The notes beneath the pieces were generated by a model that worked only from the letters and a program-made list of their open reading frames with translations, was not told where the DNA came from and searched no databases. From NCBI GenBank assembly GCA_045605805.1, contig JAZUQR010000003.1, positions 1 through 22,850 of the forward strand: 22,850 nucleotides of DNA, read 5' to 3'. Below are positions 8,387 through 14,602 of the stretch, one piece after another (position 1 is the first letter of the stretch; the number at the start of each line of letters is the position of its first letter). This DNA comes from Alphaproteobacteria bacterium (GTDB taxonomy: Bacteria > Pseudomonadota > Alphaproteobacteria > CAAHEQ01 > UBA3637). Made by a program: the position numbers and the translations under genes.

Positions 8387-8547
8387 TTTTCACTCCTTAT
8401 TTATATTCAGTAGAGTGATTATATCTTTTTTTTTATGCTCTGGCAAGTTTATTTTTGTGATATTTTTTTACATTTTTTGATTTTCTTCTTGCTTTTTTGA
8501 AAAATCTGTTTTATAACCAAGGATGTTTTTTGATAAGGAGAATTAAA

Positions 8548-9426
8548 ATGACAAAAAATACACATAAAAAACATACTCTTGCTCACCCCCCCAAGCATCA
8601 TGAAGCCCATGCTAAATGTGATTGTGGTTGTGAATGCAAGGAAGAACACAAGTGCGGATGTGGATGCGGTTGCTGCAAATGTGGCCCGATTCATCTGATC
8701 AGTCTTAGCTTGATTGGATTGGCTTTAATCTTGTCCGCTTGGGCTTTGGTGAAAAAACCTTGTTCTGAGTTTATGGATAAGTATTTGAACAACTACATCA
8801 ACAAAAATCCAAAGGTGATTGCTGATTCCGTTGAAAGATACTATCGTGATTTAGACGAAAAACGCCGTGCCGAAGAAAGAGCAAAACCAAAAATTGCTCC
8901 GGCAGAAATCGTGGCCAAAATTGTCAATGACAAAACAAACTATTCTTTGGGTAATCCAAATGGCAAGTTTGTTATTATTGAATTCTTTGATCACAATTGC
9001 GGTTGGTGCAAACGCACAAATGCTGCCATGGCAGAAGCCTTGAAAAAACCAGAAGCCAAAAACATTCGCTGGATTCCAATTGATACACCTATCTTCGGTG
9101 AAGGTTCTGAATTGATTGCCCGCTATGTGTTGGCTGCCGGTAAACATGGTAAATATGCTCAAATGCATGAAGCTGTGGGTGCCAACAAAGGTAAATTAGA
9201 CGAAGCCGCTTTGAAAGCATTGGCCACAAAAATTGGTTTGGATGCCGAAAAAGTTCAAAAAACAGCGAACAGCGATGAAATCAAAAACAAATTGGTTGCC
9301 AATCGTGACTTCACTCGTGCTTTGAACATTGGTGGTGTGCCGATGTTGATTGTGAACGGTAAAGTTCACCCAGGCGCTTTGTTTGGTGAAGATTTGGATG
9401 CTGTTGTGGCCGAATCTGCCAAATAA
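8548..9426 (+). CDS. DsbA/Com1-like thioredoxin-fold protein with N-terminal His/Cys-rich segment and TM anchor
   Basis: AAGGAG RBS before ATG 8548; EFFDHNCGWCK CxxC; IGGVP cis-Pro loop; LGNPNG motif. Confidence 0.85.
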   Translation: MTKNTHKKHTLAHPPKHHEAHAKCDCGCECKEEHKCGCGCGCCKCGPIHLISLSLIGLALILSAWALVKKPCSEFMDKYLNNYINKNPKVIADSVERYYRDLDEKRRAEERAKPKIAPAEIVAKIVNDKTNYSLGNPNGKFVIIEFFDHNCGWCKRTNAAMAEALKKPEAKNIRWIPIDTPIFGEGSELIARYVLAAGKHGKYAQMHEAVGANKGKLDEAALKALATKIGLDAEKVQKTANSDEIKNKLVANRDFTRALNIGGVPMLIVNGKVHPGALFGEDLDAVVAESAK

Positions 9427-10470: not shown

Positions 10471-11275
10471 TTACTTGCATTTGTCACTGTCTGTGGAATA
10501 CTTGCCCCCAGTGCGTCCATAGTCTTCATTATAATATGTTGTATACTCTTTACCATTTGAGCAACATACGCCATTTTTAAATTCAACATTTTCAAATTTT
10601 TCACCGCTGTACATATCTGCCAAAGGACATCCACAATTTGTAATATCAACTTGACTGTACATCATCGAACTCTCTTCCCCTAGCTCAGATAGTGCCAAGC
10701 CATAACGGCTGCAACAAGTTCCATTTTGCAGGGATACAAGATTTGGGTCAGATATATTTTCACCCACTTCATTCCAAAGTTCTCCCCATTCAACTATACC
10801 TCCCACAGGACATCCACAATTTGGAATATCAACTTTAGTGTAGACATGTTGAGAAGATTGGATCCGTTGATATGCTAAGTTATATTCACTGCAACAAACA
10901 TTCCCCTTCTGATAAACTACATCTTGGTCTGCGCCCCACATATCCGCCACATCTCCTTTGGGACAACCACACTCTGAGATATCTACCTCATAGTACCCTA
11001 AGTACCCTAACTCAGAGGATTGGCTTAATTTTCCACCATTAGAAGTACAACAAACATTATTTTTTGTTTGATAAACATTCTCTCCCAAAGCATCAGCTGT
11101 TTCGTTTGATGGACAACCACAGACAGCCGGATTGAGCACGCTATAAGAAGTACCAGAATATTCAAAACCATCATAACAACAGGTCTGTCCATCACTTCCT
11201 AATTCACCTATAACAGTTCTGCTGTCGTTTGTACCATTTGTCCATTCTATAGAGGCCTCTGGACATCCACACTGG
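10471..11275 (-). repeat. Five degenerate ~50-60 aa Cys-rich protein repeats (CGCP-x(18-30)-CC-x(n))
   Basis: CGCPEAS, CGCPSNE, CGCPKGD, CGCPVGG and CGCPLAD units, each with a downstream CC; Y-x-x-VDI in three linkers. Confidence 0.85.
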
Positions 11276-11898
11276 TCGTTTTGACAAACCTGTGTACCCG
11301 GACACTCAGTCTCTGCATCACAGGAACAAACTGGTTGTGTACAATTATTCCCATTATCGGGACAACATGCCGTTGTTTCTTTCGTATCACAGTTATAGAC
11401 CTGCACAACAGTGCCTGTGCAGGTGGGTTCTTGTGGGGTATCCGTGCCTTCGCCGCCTGTGCTACCGCTGCCGGTGACAGGGCTGAGGTCATTATTATAG
11501 GTGAAGGTCATATCGCCTCCATCACACCCTTCTGCTGTGTCAGGGCTAATGGTGGCATTATCCCAATCCAATGCCAAAATCTTTTTACACACTTCTTCTG
11601 GCACAGCTTGAACCGTCATTGAAAACTTACCCTCAGTAGCAGTACCTACTTGATTATCTGTTGTATAATCCCCTACTTGATTGTTAAAACCATTCAGACT
11701 TGCGGTTTGCCCTAATTGGCGTTGCGCAGACACAACAACTGCTCGTTTCATTAAGTCGGCTGCCACGCTATTGGCCCGATGCTTGTTCATGGCCAGCGTA
11801 TAGCCCGAAATACCGCCCACAGACAGCACGCCTATCACAGCCAAAACGCCCAGCATTTCAACCATAGAACGGCCAGATTCTTGTTTGATTTGTTTCAT
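10471..11898 (-). CDS. Type IV pilin-like protein (class III signal) with C-terminal Cys-rich repeats
   Basis: AAGGAG RBS; QESG|RSMVEMLGVLAVIGVLSVGG prepilin-like N-terminus with E+5; five CGCP...CC repeats. Confidence 0.85.
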   Translation of the reverse strand: MKQIKQESGRSMVEMLGVLAVIGVLSVGGISGYTLAMNKHRANSVAADLMKRAVVVSAQRQLGQTASLNGFNNQVGDYTTDNQVGTATEGKFSMTVQAVPEEVCKKILALDWDNATISPDTAEGCDGGDMTFTYNNDLSPVTGSGSTGGEGTDTPQEPTCTGTVVQVYNCDTKETTACCPDNGNNCTQPVCSCDAETECPGTQVCQNDQCGCPEASIEWTNGTNDSRTVIGELGSDGQTCCYDGFEYSGTSYSVLNPAVCGCPSNETADALGENVYQTKNNVCCTSNGGKLSQSSELGYLGYYEVDISECGCPKGDVADMWGADQDVVYQKGNVCCSEYNLAYQRIQSSQHVYTKVDIPNCGCPVGGIVEWGELWNEVGENISDPNLVSLQNGTCCSRYGLALSELGEESSMMYSQVDITNCGCPLADMYSGEKFENVEFKNGVCCSNGKEYTTYYNEDYGRTGGKYSTDSDKCK

Positions 11899-11920
11899 TT
11901 TATTCTCCTTTTTTTGTTAT

Positions 11921-11962
11921 AAAAAAACACCGGCCGATGGCTTGTGGCCATCCGGTCGGTGC
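11921..11962 (-). terminator. Intrinsic terminator/attenuator in the pilin 5' leader
   Basis: Minus strand GCACCGACCG-GATGGC-CACAA-GCCATC-GGCCGGTG then T7, ending just upstream of the pilin RBS. Confidence 0.85.
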
Positions 11963-11998
11963 GGTTAAAGTTTATCAAACAGCGGGCGTTGCCCCCTG

Positions 11999-12091
11999 TT
12001 ATGAAGAATTGGCAATACCCCCCCCCCGGACAATTTTTTCGTTATTTTTCAAGGGGTTAGTGACTCTTTCTTGAATCTTTACTTGAAGCAT
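11999..12091 (-). CDS. Leader peptide (30 aa) with poly-G tract, upstream of attenuator; missing from ORF track
   Basis: GGGAGG RBS at 12101-12096; MLQVKIQERVTNPLKNNEKIVRGGGIANSS*. Confidence 0.7.
   Translation of the reverse strand: MLQVKIQERVTNPLKNNEKIVRGGGIANSS
12018..12027 (-). repeat. G10 homopolymer (C10 on + strand), simple-sequence contingency repeat
   Basis: ggcaata-CCCCCCCCCC-gga; longest G/C run noticed in this AT-rich window. Confidence 0.9.
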
Positions 12092-12112
12092 TGTGCCTCC
12101 CTTCACATATCC

Positions 12113-12141
12113 TTTCTACACGATATATTATAGAATGTCAA
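12113..12141 (-). promoter_or_regulatory. Putative promoter for leader-pilin transcript
   Basis: TTGACA (12141-12136), 17 nt, TAGAAA; a TATAAT also lies at 12132-12127. Confidence 0.5.
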
Positions 12142-12153
12142 GAAAAAAAACAC

Positions 12154-12182
12154 TTGCATTTTGTTTTTGCTTTTTGTATAAT
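12154..12182 (+). promoter_or_regulatory. Promoter for tRNA-Pro
   Basis: TTGCAT-17-TATAAT. Confidence 0.75.
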
Positions 12183-12192
12183 GATTTTCAAT

Positions 12193-12269
12193 CGGAGGGT
12201 GGCTCAGCCTGGTAGAGCACTACGTTCGGGACGTAGGGGTCGTGAGTTCGAATCTCATCCCTCCGACCA
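12193..12269 (+). tRNA. tRNA-Pro(CGG)
   Basis: CGGAGGG acceptor stem, GCTCAGCCTGGTAGAGC D-arm, CTACG-TT-CGG-GA-CGTAG anticodon arm, GTTCGAATC T-loop, CCA end. Confidence 0.97.
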
Positions 12270-12274
12270 ATTAC

Positions 12275-12307
12275 AAAAAGCGAAAGGGTATCCTTCCGCT
12301 TTTTTTT
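12275..12307 (+). terminator. Terminator after tRNA-Pro (repeat copy)
   Basis: AAAAAGCGAAAGG / CCTTCCGCTTTTT stem plus T8. Confidence 0.75.
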
Positions 12308-12464
12308 GTTTTGTTTCCAAGAACTTATAAATTCGCATGTCCAACTGTCAAAAATGCTCATTTTCAGCCATCTACGAACTCTTGACTCAAAAAATCCTTA
12401 TTTTTCAATACCCGCCCTCTGGGAACCTAAAACACAAATGCCAGAAAATAGACCTGAAAATTTA

Positions 12465-12494
12465 AAAAACGAGATAGTTTCCTATCTCGTTTTT
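12465..12494 (-). terminator. Terminator ending the methyltransferase-rSAM-peptide operon
   Basis: Perfect 13-bp stem AAAAACGAGATAG / CTATCTCGTTTTT just past the peptide stop. Confidence 0.85.
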
Positions 12495-12500
12495 CTTGAT

Positions 12501-12602
12501 TTAGTTAGAATGTTTACCTTGGCAATTTGGATGATGATTGCTTGATCCACAACCCATTGCTAAAACTCTTGCCGTATTTACTGCTTTTTTAACAATCTTC
12601 AT
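12501..12602 (-). CDS. Putative RiPP precursor peptide (33 aa); missing from ORF track
   Basis: GAAAGGAG RBS; MKIVKKAVNTARVLAMGCGSSNHHPNCQGKHSN*; overlaps the rSAM end and is followed by a terminator. Confidence 0.8.
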   Translation of the reverse strand: MKIVKKAVNTARVLAMGCGSSNHHPNCQGKHSN

Positions 12603-13881
12603 TGTTTTCTCCTTTCATAAGATTAGACACACTAGAGAACAAAGACTCTTTCTCTGTTCCAACGTAAGTATAATACTTTTTCAAAAACTCGTCAATATCA
12701 TATTGTAAAAAAATGCATGGATTCCCAATTTTACAAAATTGTTTACCTCCACATAAGAATATGCTGGGACACTTTAAGCATTCCTCATCAAAGGGAGAGA
12801 TTCGTTTCGTTTCAAAAAGTTCTTTTAATTTATCTACATCCGAGGCGACCTCCTTTATTTTAGAAATTCTATCCTTGTATTTTTGACCACTACAAACGGT
12901 GAGAGAACCATCGGGCATCACTTTTAAATTATATGGCGCATATGCTCTGCAATAAGAATAAATCGGTCTGGGAAAATCGACATGTATGTTGTTTTTTAAC
13001 AAAATATCAATTGCCGTGTGGATATACCACTTGGAAAATTCCTGGAATGCAACTTGTGCCTTATATTCATTATAAGAAAAATCAACGATTGGAGCAATTT
13101 CCATATATTCAACCCAAGGCAAATTTTCTTTAATAAAGCTGATAAAGTCTTGAAAGGTTTTCATTGTCTCAGGACTAACATTACTACGAATCCGAAGTTG
13201 TCGTTTTTCATTAAATAAATCTGCGCATTCTCTTAGATTCTTTATAATAATATCAAAAGACCCCTTTCCGTCTGGAAAAATACGTTTTGTATCATGATCT
13301 CGTTTGTCTGACAATGTCAAATTAATATACAGTTGTTCAAACTTCTCATAAAAAGCCCGTGTTAACAACACGCCATTTGTATCAATTGCATAAGAAATTT
13401 GTTGTGGAGAAATATATTTTTCTAATTGTTTTTTAAAATATAAAATTCGAGATTGCCCTAGAAGAGGTTCTCCCCCAAAAAAATCCACCGCTATTGTTTT
13501 AAAATGATATTTTTTTTGACATTCTACGATATACTTTACTGTCTCATCTAAATTTTCTTCTGAAATAACGCCAGAATCTTTAGAATCATTTTGGGAACAA
13601 TAAACACACCTCAAATTGCAGGCCTGAGTCATACTGATTGTTATAATCAGAGTATCTTGAACTTTTTTACGCTGATTTAAAAGATACTCTAAAGACTTCT
13701 TTTCAGAATCAAAAAAGCCCAAATCTTTCATTTGGGTGTATTCTTCACCTTCAAGAATCACTTTCTTTCCATTTACTTTACTTTTTTGTAAAGCAACAAT
13801 TGCTTCATTGATGGTATTATACAATAAAAATTCATCATTACAGGGTGTAATATGAACATATTTACTTAAACTTTTTTCCAT
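12589..13881 (-). CDS. Radical SAM/SPASM-domain peptide maturase with probable N-terminal RRE
   Basis: CNLRCVYC, FFGGEPLL, DTNG, DGKGSF, SPASM-like C...PDGSLTVC...CLKCPSIFLCGG...C...C; GAAAGGA RBS favours ATG 13881 over 13905. Confidence 0.9.
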   Translation of the reverse strand: MEKSLSKYVHITPCNDEFLLYNTINEAIVALQKSKVNGKKVILEGEEYTQMKDLGFFDSEKKSLEYLLNQRKKVQDTLIITISMTQACNLRCVYCSQNDSKDSGVISEENLDETVKYIVECQKKYHFKTIAVDFFGGEPLLGQSRILYFKKQLEKYISPQQISYAIDTNGVLLTRAFYEKFEQLYINLTLSDKRDHDTKRIFPDGKGSFDIIIKNLRECADLFNEKRQLRIRSNVSPETMKTFQDFISFIKENLPWVEYMEIAPIVDFSYNEYKAQVAFQEFSKWYIHTAIDILLKNNIHVDFPRPIYSYCRAYAPYNLKVMPDGSLTVCSGQKYKDRISKIKEVASDVDKLKELFETKRISPFDEECLKCPSIFLCGGKQFCKIGNPCIFLQYDIDEFLKKYYTYVGTEKESLFSSVSNLMKGENNEDC

Positions 13882-14602
13882 TAAAATCCTTTCGTGTAAA
13901 TTCATAACACGCCAACGAAGCAGCGGTTTGAAGATTCAAACTATCTATATCATGCGTGTGTGAAATCAAAAGGGGTTCGCCAACTTTTAAAAAATCATCA
14001 GGCAAACCCGCTCCCTCGTTTCCAAAAATCAGCGCATAAGGTTTTTGGATTCTTTGTAAATTTTGTAGAGTGTTTTTCGCTTTTAACATAAAGGGATGAA
14101 AATGATAATTTTGAAAATGCTCTTGGTACAATTCAAACGAAGCAAAGTATTGAATATTTACTTGAAAAAAAGCCCCCATGGATGCACGAATACATTTAGG
14201 ATCAAAAGCATCTACGGCTGGTCGAATAATCGCTATGTCTTTGATTCCAAATCCTAAACAACTGCGGATAATCGTTCCCATATTTCCCGTATTAGAAGGA
14301 TTTACCAAAACAACATGATTGTTTGAAGAAGAAAGGATCTGTTCACTTTTCTTAAACACACCAATAGCAAAGCAATTTTCTTTTGGCGATAAAATACCAA
14401 AAGGTTTTGTGCCTTGTAATATAGGTATGTTTTTTGCTTTAGCTAAATCTTTTATTTTCCATTCCAATTCTGATGAAAGGTCAGAATGAAGATAAATTGT
14501 AACTATGCTTTCTGAACGATACTTCAACAAATCCAAAACAGGAGCTACACCTAAAGCATAGCTTTCCGAATTTTCCTTTTTATAACGAATAAAATGTGGC
14601 AT
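13862..14602 (-). CDS. SpoU/TrmH-family RNA 2'-O-methyltransferase
   Basis: NPSNTGNMGTIIRS, RASMGA, IFGNEGAGL, IDSLNL SPOUT motifs; GGAG RBS before ATG 14602. Confidence 0.92.
   Translation of the reverse strand: MPHFIRYKKENSESYALGVAPVLDLLKYRSESIVTIYLHSDLSSELEWKIKDLAKAKNIPILQGTKPFGILSPKENCFAIGVFKKSEQILSSSNNHVVLVNPSNTGNMGTIIRSCLGFGIKDIAIIRPAVDAFDPKCIRASMGAFFQVNIQYFASFELYQEHFQNYHFHPFMLKAKNTLQNLQRIQKPYALIFGNEGAGLPDDFLKVGEPLLISHTHDIDSLNLQTAASLACYEFTRKDFNGKKFK

Follow-up and report, generated by a model that had tools for sequence, protein, structure and literature searches.

A repeated poly-G leader cassette as a likely phase-variable attenuator of pilin-like and other genes in a small-genome alphaproteobacterium

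The stretch of DNA analyzed here (the window, 22,850 nt) belongs to contig C3 (JAZUQR010000003.1) of an alphaproteobacterial metagenome-assembled genome (MAG) that we refer to as G000. On the minus strand of this window, at 12141-11899, lies a cassette in which a promoter, a leader open reading frame (ORF) with a run of ten G, an intrinsic terminator and the ribosome-binding site (RBS) of the controlled gene follow one another in this order, and the controlled gene encodes a pilin-like protein of 475 aa. The cassette most likely flips each of its downstream genes on and off at random as a G is gained or lost, and we consider it likely that it does so as a heritable slipped-strand switch that acts via leader-peptide length and ribosome-mediated antitermination. 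The distribution of long G/C runs in the genome is bimodal, with 40 runs of length 7, nine of length 8, none of length 9, seven of length 10 and one of length 11. All eight runs of at least 10 nt fall in the same conserved cassette of about 260 nt, which argues that the poly-G is more than chance.

The poly-G leader and its predicted states

The arrangement had been described in an earlier note made from the sequence, and re-reading of the minus strand confirmed this description to the base. The elements of the locus, all on the minus strand, are as follows.

12136..12141, minus strand: -35 box TTGACA (from the sequence), the first conserved element of the repeated cassette
12113..12118, minus strand: candidate -10 box TAGAAA, 17 nt after TTGACA and without the final T
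12132-12127, minus strand: alternative -10 box TATAAT, with no good -35 box
12096..12101, minus strand: Shine-Dalgarno sequence GGGAGG of the leader ORF (from the sequence)
11999..12091, minus strand: leader ORF, with ATG at 12091 and TAA at 12001-11999, 30 codons at G10
12018..12027, minus strand: G10 homopolymer, the proposed slipped-strand switch
11979..11999, minus strand: first small hairpin, ACAGGGGGCAACGCCCGCUGU, in the minimum free energy (MFE) and centroid structures
11965..11967, minus strand: TAA ending the leader in the G9 frame (frame 2 stop, +50 from the tract)
11921..11961, minus strand: intrinsic terminator, a CACCGACCGGATGGCC-ACAA-GCCATCGGCCGGTG stem-loop (11961-11928) followed by T7 (11927-11921), with a fold of -19.0 kcal/mol
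11905..11910, minus strand: RBS AAGGAG of the pilin-like gene (from the sequence)
11895..11897, minus strand: TGA ending the leader in the G11 frame, overlapping the pilin ATG (ATGA)
10471..11898, minus strand: ORF of the 475-aa pilin-like gene, with ATG at 11898

The -35 box TTGACA is kept in 10 of the 13 copies in G000 that include this region, and it is found in most cassettes of the relatives too. The exceptions within G000 are C21, where TTGACA lies further upstream, C24, which has TTTATA at this place, and C1, where the box stands at a spacing of its own. The RBS and ATG of the leader are retained in every copy in G000 despite diverging flanks. The G10 tract lies 109 nt downstream of the -35 box and 119 nt upstream of the gene ATG, in an upstream ORF (uORF) separate from the gene, and in this state the leader peptide is 30 aa long (MLQVKIQERVTNPLKNNEKIVRGGGIANSS). 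The fold of the 236-nt leader has a z value of -3.6 and is better than all 200 shuffles, and MFE and centroid structure alike contain the terminator hairpin. The small hairpin ACAGGGGGCAACGCCCGCUGU is confined to leaders of the G000 and G020 types. Rfam 15 gave nothing near threshold in 11800-12300, and only tRNAs across the window.

Frame arithmetic reproduces the leader lengths that had been claimed earlier, i.e., 30, 41 and 65 aa for G10, G9 and G11, as well as the ATGA overlap in the G11 frame. With G10 the leader stops 37 nt before the hairpin, with G9 its TAA at 11967-11965 lies 3 nt before the hairpin, and with G11 it reads through the hairpin to the TGA that overlaps the gene ATG. While lengths and stops stand as first described, the distances of 36 and 2 nt given at that time become 37 and 3 nt, a shift of 1 nt that reflects the choice of the first base pair of the stem. 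The predicted G11 form also exists in nature, as the copy on C9 is 98% identical to that on C3 and has a G11 tract, a leader of 65 aa and the ATGA overlap. These two copies are predicted to be in different states, short for C3 and long for C9.

Under the proposed switch, replication slippage would alter the tract by one G and change the frame in which the leader ORF exits the tract. In the short frame (G10 at this locus), the ribosome would stop 37 nt before the terminator and the hairpin would form, most transcripts would end at 11921-11927, and the pilin-like gene would be OFF or low. In the long frame (G11), the ribosome would translate across the hairpin, which could then not form, RNA polymerase would read on and the gene would be ON, and the leader stop overlapping the pilin ATG would add translational coupling. 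A ribosome terminating in the middle frame (G9) would cover the 5' arm of the stem, and the gene would probably be ON as well. With 13 or more cassettes in the genome switching independently, the surface and other proteins would form a repertoire that is combinatorial, heritable and reversible. The gap between T7 and the gene ATG is 22 nt and consists of A-rich sequence and the RBS. As this leaves no room for a separate promoter, transcription of the pilin-like gene must pass the terminator.

The prediction of ON and OFF states draws on the pilus loci pil1 and pil3 of Streptococcus gallolyticus. There, expression is low when the leader ends 28 nt or more upstream of the terminator and high when it ends immediately before, within or beyond it, as the ribosome then occludes the stem-loop (Danne et al., 2014; PMC3894217). 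At the window locus, the leader stops lie 37 nt and 3 nt ahead of the hairpin or, past it, at the ATG, a geometry that matches these rules, by which G10 would be OFF and both G11 and G9 would be ON. It is from this analogy that we infer ribosome-mediated antitermination and which frame is ON. Slippage within populations is suggested by the behavior of G/C runs of at least 8 nt, by the spread of natural tracts from G8 to G13, and by the C3/C9 pair.

Copies in the genome and in its relatives

The genome G000 has a size of 1.21 Mb in 31 contigs, a GC content of 40.7% and a completeness of 98.85%. With the window copy as blastn query, parts of the cassette were found on 15 contigs, which corresponds to 13 or more loci, distributed as follows.

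Complete copies: C1, C3, C9, C11, C14
Left halves ending at or near the tract: C5, C6, C13, C18, C21, C24, C30, C31
Right halves: C20, C25

Contig ends lie inside the cassette in 11 of 62 cases. The conserved span extends from a T-rich stretch before TTGACA to the RBS of the downstream gene, and the outer flanks and the genes themselves differ among the copies. The downstream genes are pilin-like on C3, C9 and C20, an 857-aa autotransporter on C1 (PF03797, 1.3e-28), a leucine-rich-repeat (LRR) protein on C11 (LRR_6, 8e-20) and a Cys-rich protein with a signal peptide on C14. C25 retains a remnant of 15 codons only, with no downstream gene. The earlier note had suggested looking for the cassette upstream of paralogs and in related genomes, and this search yielded the 13 or more loci in G000 together with those in the relatives described below. 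Other pilin-like genes with the GRSMVEMLGVL motif are indeed preceded by the cassette, both here (C9 and C20) and in relatives (L002, L014 and L053).

Among the 80 genomes of the family, which also make up the order, the pattern G8+TATTGC gave 41 matches in 13 genomes, and the reversed control gave 0. The cassette is present in at least nine other species of the genus, with tracts from G8 to G13 and species-specific terminators. An exact 17-mer searched over 185,579 species representatives matched 61 loci, which by a rough estimate is about chance level; 14 of the 61 also have the left core and the T-run, and all 14 are in MAGs named Alphaproteobacteria bacterium. The 42 unique instances have G8 in 4, G9 in 13, G10 in 9, G11 in 9, G12 in 4 and G13 in 3. 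They were ascertained by at least eight G followed by TATTGC, and the conservation of TATTGC is thus partly circular; cassettes with another right flank exist, e.g., L134 in G001.

A detectable terminator and a gene within 70 nt are found in 26 of the 42 instances, and without L017, which is different and antisense, these form a set of 25 cassettes in 7 sequence clusters. Instances were set aside if they are cut by contig ends (C21, C24, C9/L056, L058, L067, L068 and L070) or stand in other contexts (L033, L034, L035, L041, L046, L047, L054 and L071); also set aside were L049, which the hairpin filter missed, and C25, which has no downstream gene. An ATG-initiated ORF of at least 60 nt enters the tract in 24 of 24 cassettes that have at least 120 nt upstream, against a mean probability of 0.12 per locus in dinucleotide shuffles. 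Across the 7 clusters, this is strong evidence at the sequence level that the leader ORF upstream of the tract is translated or selected. The leader ATG of G019, G004, G020, G008 and G005 stands 6-7 nt after the -10 box (TATACT or TAGGTT), which suggests a leaderless start, and these leaders often have a second in-frame ATG with a Shine-Dalgarno sequence.

A hairpin closed by CAC...GTG and followed by T6-7 is present in all 25 cassettes and ends 15-48 nt before the gene ATG, with 18 of them falling in the range of 17-27 nt. Between groups, the inner stems are unrelated; within groups, double-sided compensatory changes occur in 4 of 11, 2 of 10 and 2 of 9 pairs. From these sequence comparisons, the terminator appears to be selected as a structure. 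Pairing of the G-run with a C-rich segment, as an RNA antiterminator, was limited to the G000 fold and is not shared by the relatives. Flanking inverted repeats were absent beyond A/T runs.

Some frame is open through the 3' end of the hairpin in 22 of the 25 cassettes, which by itself means little, given that the same holds for 68% of the shuffles. The more informative pattern is that exactly one frame crosses the hairpin, both others having their stop ahead of the stem, as found in 20 of 25 cassettes (null 0.30) and in 5 of the 7 clusters. Three further cassettes, L007, L014 and C11, have the stop of the long frame inside the hairpin loop, a position with high expression in S. gallolyticus. 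Where the long frame ends differs between cassettes. In C3/C9, C1, L022/L024 and L053 it ends at the gene ATG or within 2 nt of it, and in about half of the cassettes it ends at the TAA of TTTTTTTATAA directly after the T-run, which leaves 15-25 nt to the ATG. Coupling of translation through ATGA is specific to the C3/C9 type; the long frame of many relatives ends right after the T-run.

States were assigned to 28 cassettes from the assembled tract lengths. L024, where the hairpin limits had been mis-set, was corrected by hand, C20 was inferred from its identity with C1, and C21 was called by frame only. The natural copies occupy all three frames.

Short frame: 21 of 28 cassettes, including C3, C11 and C24/25 of G000
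Middle frame: 1 of 28 cassettes, L027
Long frame: 6 of 28 cassettes, namely C1, C9, C14, C20 and C21 of G000 and L048 of G019

The flanks of the tract are far better conserved than the rest of the leader, with ..AAYAAG...TTGAWAAATAAnGA.. on the left and TATTGCC(A/T)AG on the right. The same core also occurs reverse-complemented in the 5' coding region of pilin-like genes in G014, which belongs to the same genus, and G022, which belongs to another genus of the family. The genes with this inverted core are listed here.

G014: L072 (G014:C73), L041 (G014:C34)
G022: L033, L046, L054

Their layout is an RBS, an ATG, 7-10 codons, GCAATA and then C10-13. One frame after the tract leads into ..VNN(S/L)(C/Y)FS(S/T)GY...ESGRSMVEMLG, that is, a long prepilin leader followed by GRS(M/F/L)VE(M/V)LG, and all five genes are out of frame as assembled. 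As judged from these sequences, the inverted core is a classical switch inside the coding sequence that makes use of this same module. As the reading frame of GCAATA varies from gene to gene, the conservation of the flanks is at the DNA or RNA level and not at the level of the peptide. Likewise, the use of the core in both orientations and in different frames means that its conservation is not due to one encoded peptide. In the G orientation, it serves with a uORF and a terminator before varied genes in G000, G019, G004, G018 and others.

A tentative idea, to which we give a low probability, is that tract and flanks together (..TTGAWAAATAAnGA..(10-17 nt)..G(n)..TATTGCC(A/T)AG) constitute a portable hypermutation or timing module selected at the nucleic-acid level. 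The flanks might tune the rate of slippage, bind a factor or, in the G orientation, make RNA polymerase pause right after the tract, since G(n)TATTG presumably fits the G-10/Y-1/G+1 elemental pause consensus. Such a pause would allow the ribosome to catch up before the terminator is made. If true, this would be an evolved plug-in switch that turns any gene into a contingency gene. The presence of the core in both orientations also raised the possibility of an invertible element, which was rejected on the lack of flanking inverted repeats noted above.

Long G-runs by themselves are not a sign of phase variation in this genus. Runs of at least nine G occur in 20 of its 21 genomes, and as a cassette marker on their own they were rejected, since in G011 they are mostly Gly-Gly-Gly codons of ordinary proteins. 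The G9 runs of G011 (L118-L130) are mostly GGG-GGG-GGG within genes, several of them of housekeeping type by eye (DnaJ-like, UvrA-like and Cys-tRNA-ligase-like), and a few lie outside clear coding regions. G018 has a second family of tracts (L058, L067, L068, L070 and L071), with G9-G13 followed by TATTGCCAAAGCCCTAAAG.. and a different left flank. Each of these copies has a contig end at a distance of 40-180 nt; four are cut 44-46 nt after the tract, and L071 extends for 171 nt after it. Two short contigs of a Candidatus Phascolarctobacterium caballi MAG (L146 and L157) carry the near-identical contexts ..caaataatata(a/g)t-G(n)-TATTGCCAATACTGCTCC.. with G8 in one and G10 in the other and a T-run downstream; these may be another variable poly-G element or mis-binned contigs.

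The pilin-like gene, other controlled genes and neighbors

The earlier note had called the controlled gene type IV pilin-like, and this description is supported by the predicted fold, by the structural matches and by a prepilin peptidase in the genome. The N-terminus of the 475-aa protein reads MKQIKQESG/RSMVEMLGVLAVIGVLS (the slash precedes position +1), with Glu at +5. Within the motif G9/RSMVE14MLGVLAVIGVLS, the residues E14, M15, L16 and L19 are invariant in 52 relatives. Pfam reports matches below threshold only (N_methyl at E = 0.14 and PilS at E = 0.026). Among the 52 relatives, PilS is found in three at E up to 0.01 (best 2.9e-5) and N_methyl in two, and a sequence search of the PDB gave weak matches to pilin N-termini only (E 0.08-0.3).

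An AlphaFold2 (AF2) model of residues 1-140, made from the 52-sequence alignment, has a predicted local distance difference test score (pLDDT) of 90.3 and a predicted TM-score (pTM) of 0.74, and shows an N-terminal helix of 52 residues (10-61) packed on four strands. The top Foldseek matches are type IVb pilins, led by the TcpA filament (8uhf, E 1.3e-3, probability 0.99-1.0), and also include the type IVb pilus of enterotoxigenic Escherichia coli (ETEC; 9iuf, TMq 0.57), C. difficile PilA1, S. Typhi PilS and CofA; the entries 3fhu and 3s0t are among the best. No Foldseek match reached E <=1e-3, i.e., the best E-values are marginal. The prepilin peptidase is encoded on C7 (Peptidase_A24, 68.9 bits), and three T2SSE ATPases are encoded on C27. 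Collectively, the model supports a type IVb pilin-like head domain in the 475-aa protein. As in type IVb pilins (TcpA, CofA/longus-type and PilS), the N-terminus is of the form G/xxxxE, and a long alpha-1 helix is predicted to lie on a beta-sheet. Unlike them, the protein has Arg and not Phe or Met at +1, and it continues at the C-terminus in a Cys-rich extension of some 300 aa or more.

This extension comprises the C-terminal ~330 residues, for which the only lead is an EGF-like one. The head domain (first 140 residues) is part of an unannotated family of very large size, with 5054 representative relatives at E <=1e-3; the best 150 listed are between 108 and 928 aa long. In many members, GRSMVEML is preceded by 25-60 additional N-terminal residues, and hardly any member is recognized by Pfam. 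A fourth full-length pilin-like paralog in G000, also of 475 aa (MKQTTQESGRSMVEML..), is found outside the window at ~7650-7930 on C10. Its leader of ~190 nt is different, with a promoter-like TTGATA/TATACT, a terminator-like hairpin with T8 before the RBS and no G-run, and from its sequence it may be an attenuator of another kind.

The 25 controlled genes comprise five pilin-like genes, seven genes for proteins with a signal peptide and a Cys-rich mature part (by eye), one autotransporter, one LRR protein and 11 orphans. NCBIfam gave nothing useful for the downstream proteins.

Several neighbors of the cassette in the window were also observed. Upstream of it, a divergent tRNA-Pro(CGG) lies at 12193-12269. 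The sigma-70-like matches reported in 11500-12600 are on the plus strand only, at 12102-12131 (TTCACA, spacing of 16-18 nt, TATATT/TATTAT; 10 of 12); they are antisense to the 5' part of the cassette and face the tRNA gene, and may be the tRNA promoter or due to chance. Adjoining the tRNA gene is a radical SAM protein of 438 aa (12589-13905, minus strand; PF04055, 1.9e-13) with a Cys-rich C-terminal part. A DsbA-like thioredoxin protein is encoded at 8497-9426 on the plus strand (PF01323, 5e-19), with an unusual His/Cys-rich N-terminal extension containing ..HKKHTLAHPPKHHEAHAKCDCGCECKEEHKCGCGCGCCKCG.., and the neighboring Cys-rich pilin-like and secreted proteins would need disulfide formation.

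Alternative explanations and known systems

Several observations weigh against the slipped-strand switch as proposed. A simple consensus scan flagged no promoter or terminator on the minus strand; the -10 box lacks its final T, and there are internal mismatches in the stem. No direct heterogeneity of tract length was seen. The Logan contigs, which come from runs of animal gut or feces with a share of at most 0.27, are broken up around the tract, list no indel at 12018-12027 and are thus uninformative at the tract either way. A metagenome scan with the leader 23-mer TTGAAAAATAAYGAAAAAATTGT returned 41 loci, all of them in an unrelated gene with no G-run. MutS and MutL are encoded and mismatch repair is intact; loss of mismatch repair was therefore rejected as a cause of instability, which need not rest on it. 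The predicted states are skewed (21 of 28 short, one middle and six long), which fits a mostly silent repertoire and equally fits the short peptide being the normal, conserved product. The statistic for exactly one frame crossing the hairpin is modest, at roughly p = 0.03 at cluster level by our own binomial calculation. In addition, many controlled genes do not encode recognizable surface proteins: by eye, a signal peptide is missing from 11 of the 25, and 15 of the 16 downstream proteins scanned belong to no Pfam family. Lastly, the model does not account for the conserved left and right flanks of the tract.

The alternative closest to the proposed switch keeps the tract as the element that sets the leader frame, and differs in how the frame would act. 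A short leader would lead to Rho-dependent termination or mRNA decay, a long leader would allow termination-reinitiation at the gene ATG, and the hairpin would mainly be a stabilizer or a pause site. Rho is encoded in the genome, so a contribution from it is possible, and Rho attenuation that depends on a uORF is well known (PMC12360218). The long-frame stops that overlap the gene ATG or lie within 2 nt of it, as described above for C3/C9, C1, L022/L024 and L053, are also what reinitiation would make use of. However, tight coupling of this kind is not conserved, as about half of the long frames end 15-25 nt short of the ATG. The hallmark of intrinsic termination, a canonical GC-rich hairpin with T6-7 immediately behind it, is present in every cassette, and the stretch left untranslated is ~100 nt long and A/T-rich, with few C-rich candidate rut sites. 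For these reasons we consider this alternative unlikely.

The far greater conservation of the tract flanks across species, when compared with the remaining leader, is what a conventional attenuator would explain. Here, a signal would be sensed by the leader peptide or the RNA core (..LKNNEKIV-GGG.. / UUGAAAAAUAA..G(n)..UAUUGCC), possibly via a stalled ribosome, a small RNA or a binding protein, and the G-run, whose differences in length would be incidental, would have a coding or structural role. That 21 of 28 copies share the short frame agrees with this, as do indels beside the tract that offset its length and keep the frame, as seen in two pairs of copies, L022 (83 nt + G11) when compared with L023 (82 nt + G9) and with L025 (86 nt + G8). 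On the other hand, G runs of at least 8 nt are mutational hot spots in bacteria with mismatch repair, and natural copies are found in all three frames. The same core stands inverted inside coding regions, where only its length can matter, and neither an Rfam family nor a conserved alternative antiterminator pairing was seen for the leader. Taken together, we find a signal-sensing attenuator somewhat more unlikely still than an output via Rho or coupling.

Very improbable, finally, is a repeated and possibly mobile promoter-terminator element, or an assembly artifact, in which the G-run has no regulatory role: the cassette occurs in many copies and interrupts the assembly at 11 of 62 contig ends, and poly-G can be a sequencing artifact at read ends, but conserved sequence surrounds the tracts in 13 independent assemblies, the orientation of the cassette and its distance to the downstream ATG are always the same, flanking inverted repeats are absent, and the downstream genes have no other promoter space.

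The slipped-strand switch is of interest beyond this locus, since phase variation by a leader peptide combined with attenuation has been demonstrated once, at two pilus loci of one streptococcus, and the poly-G cassette is conserved across a genus of uncultured Alphaproteobacteria of the animal gut. If the proposed switch is true, it is a general way to make any gene phase-variable with its coding sequence untouched. A gut symbiont with a reduced genome would thereby gain a combinatorial surface repertoire, as at least eight independent switches would give at least 256 states. It would also provide a sequence signature by which contingency genes can be found in metagenomes, in which assemblies are also broken at poly-G tracts. 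The genus further offers natural alleles from G8 to G13 and two modes of use (uORF and in-CDS, i.e., inside the coding sequence) for studying how such switches evolve.

In their use of G or C runs, the closest known systems are the contingency loci of Campylobacter, Neisseria, Haemophilus and Bordetella, where runs of ~8-13 act as reversible surface switches at many loci per genome (PMC11955535). The tract of these loci lies in the regulated coding region or in the promoter spacer, whereas here it lies in neither and belongs to a separate uORF. Their in-CDS layout is found in the relatives G014 and G022 with the inverted core. The attenuators of the trp and his operons share with the present proposal that a downstream intrinsic terminator forms or not depending on where the ribosome stands on a leader ORF (PMC3894217 and PMC12360218). 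The position is set there by the supply of charged tRNA together with antiterminator pairing, and here it would be set by a heritable change of frame. Unlike in trp and his, a conserved antiterminator helix was not found in the leaders of G000 or its relatives.

A full-text search, with most subscription journals outside its scope, found no published case of a homopolymer switch with a uORF and a terminator, and within the same scope the system of Danne et al. was the only one found to combine a repeat-driven leader length with attenuation. The earlier note had named pil1 as the precedent, and the designs do agree in having a repeat in the leader and a terminator (PMC3894217). The pil1 and pil3 loci resemble the poly-G cassette in having a promoter-proximal leader ORF with a simple-sequence repeat, an intrinsic terminator and a pilus gene, in that changes of the repeat alter the length of the leader, and in that more than one locus per genome is controlled. 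Their repeat is the pentanucleotide GCAGA in 13-23 units, whereas here it is a homopolymer of G8-G13. S. gallolyticus is a Gram-positive bacterium with sortase pili, while the poly-G cassette stands in a small-genome Gram-negative alphaproteobacterial MAG before type IVb pilin-like, autotransporter, LRR and orphan genes. Two loci are controlled in the streptococcus, and 13 or more copies of one homologous, portable cassette with conserved tract flanks are present here. The pil1/pil3 switch was demonstrated experimentally, whereas the poly-G cassette is known from its sequence, and no sequence homology between the two is expected. Compared with pil1 and pil3, the new features are thus the homopolymer, the portable cassette in many copies, the Gram-negative host with a small genome, and the many classes of genes that stand downstream of it.

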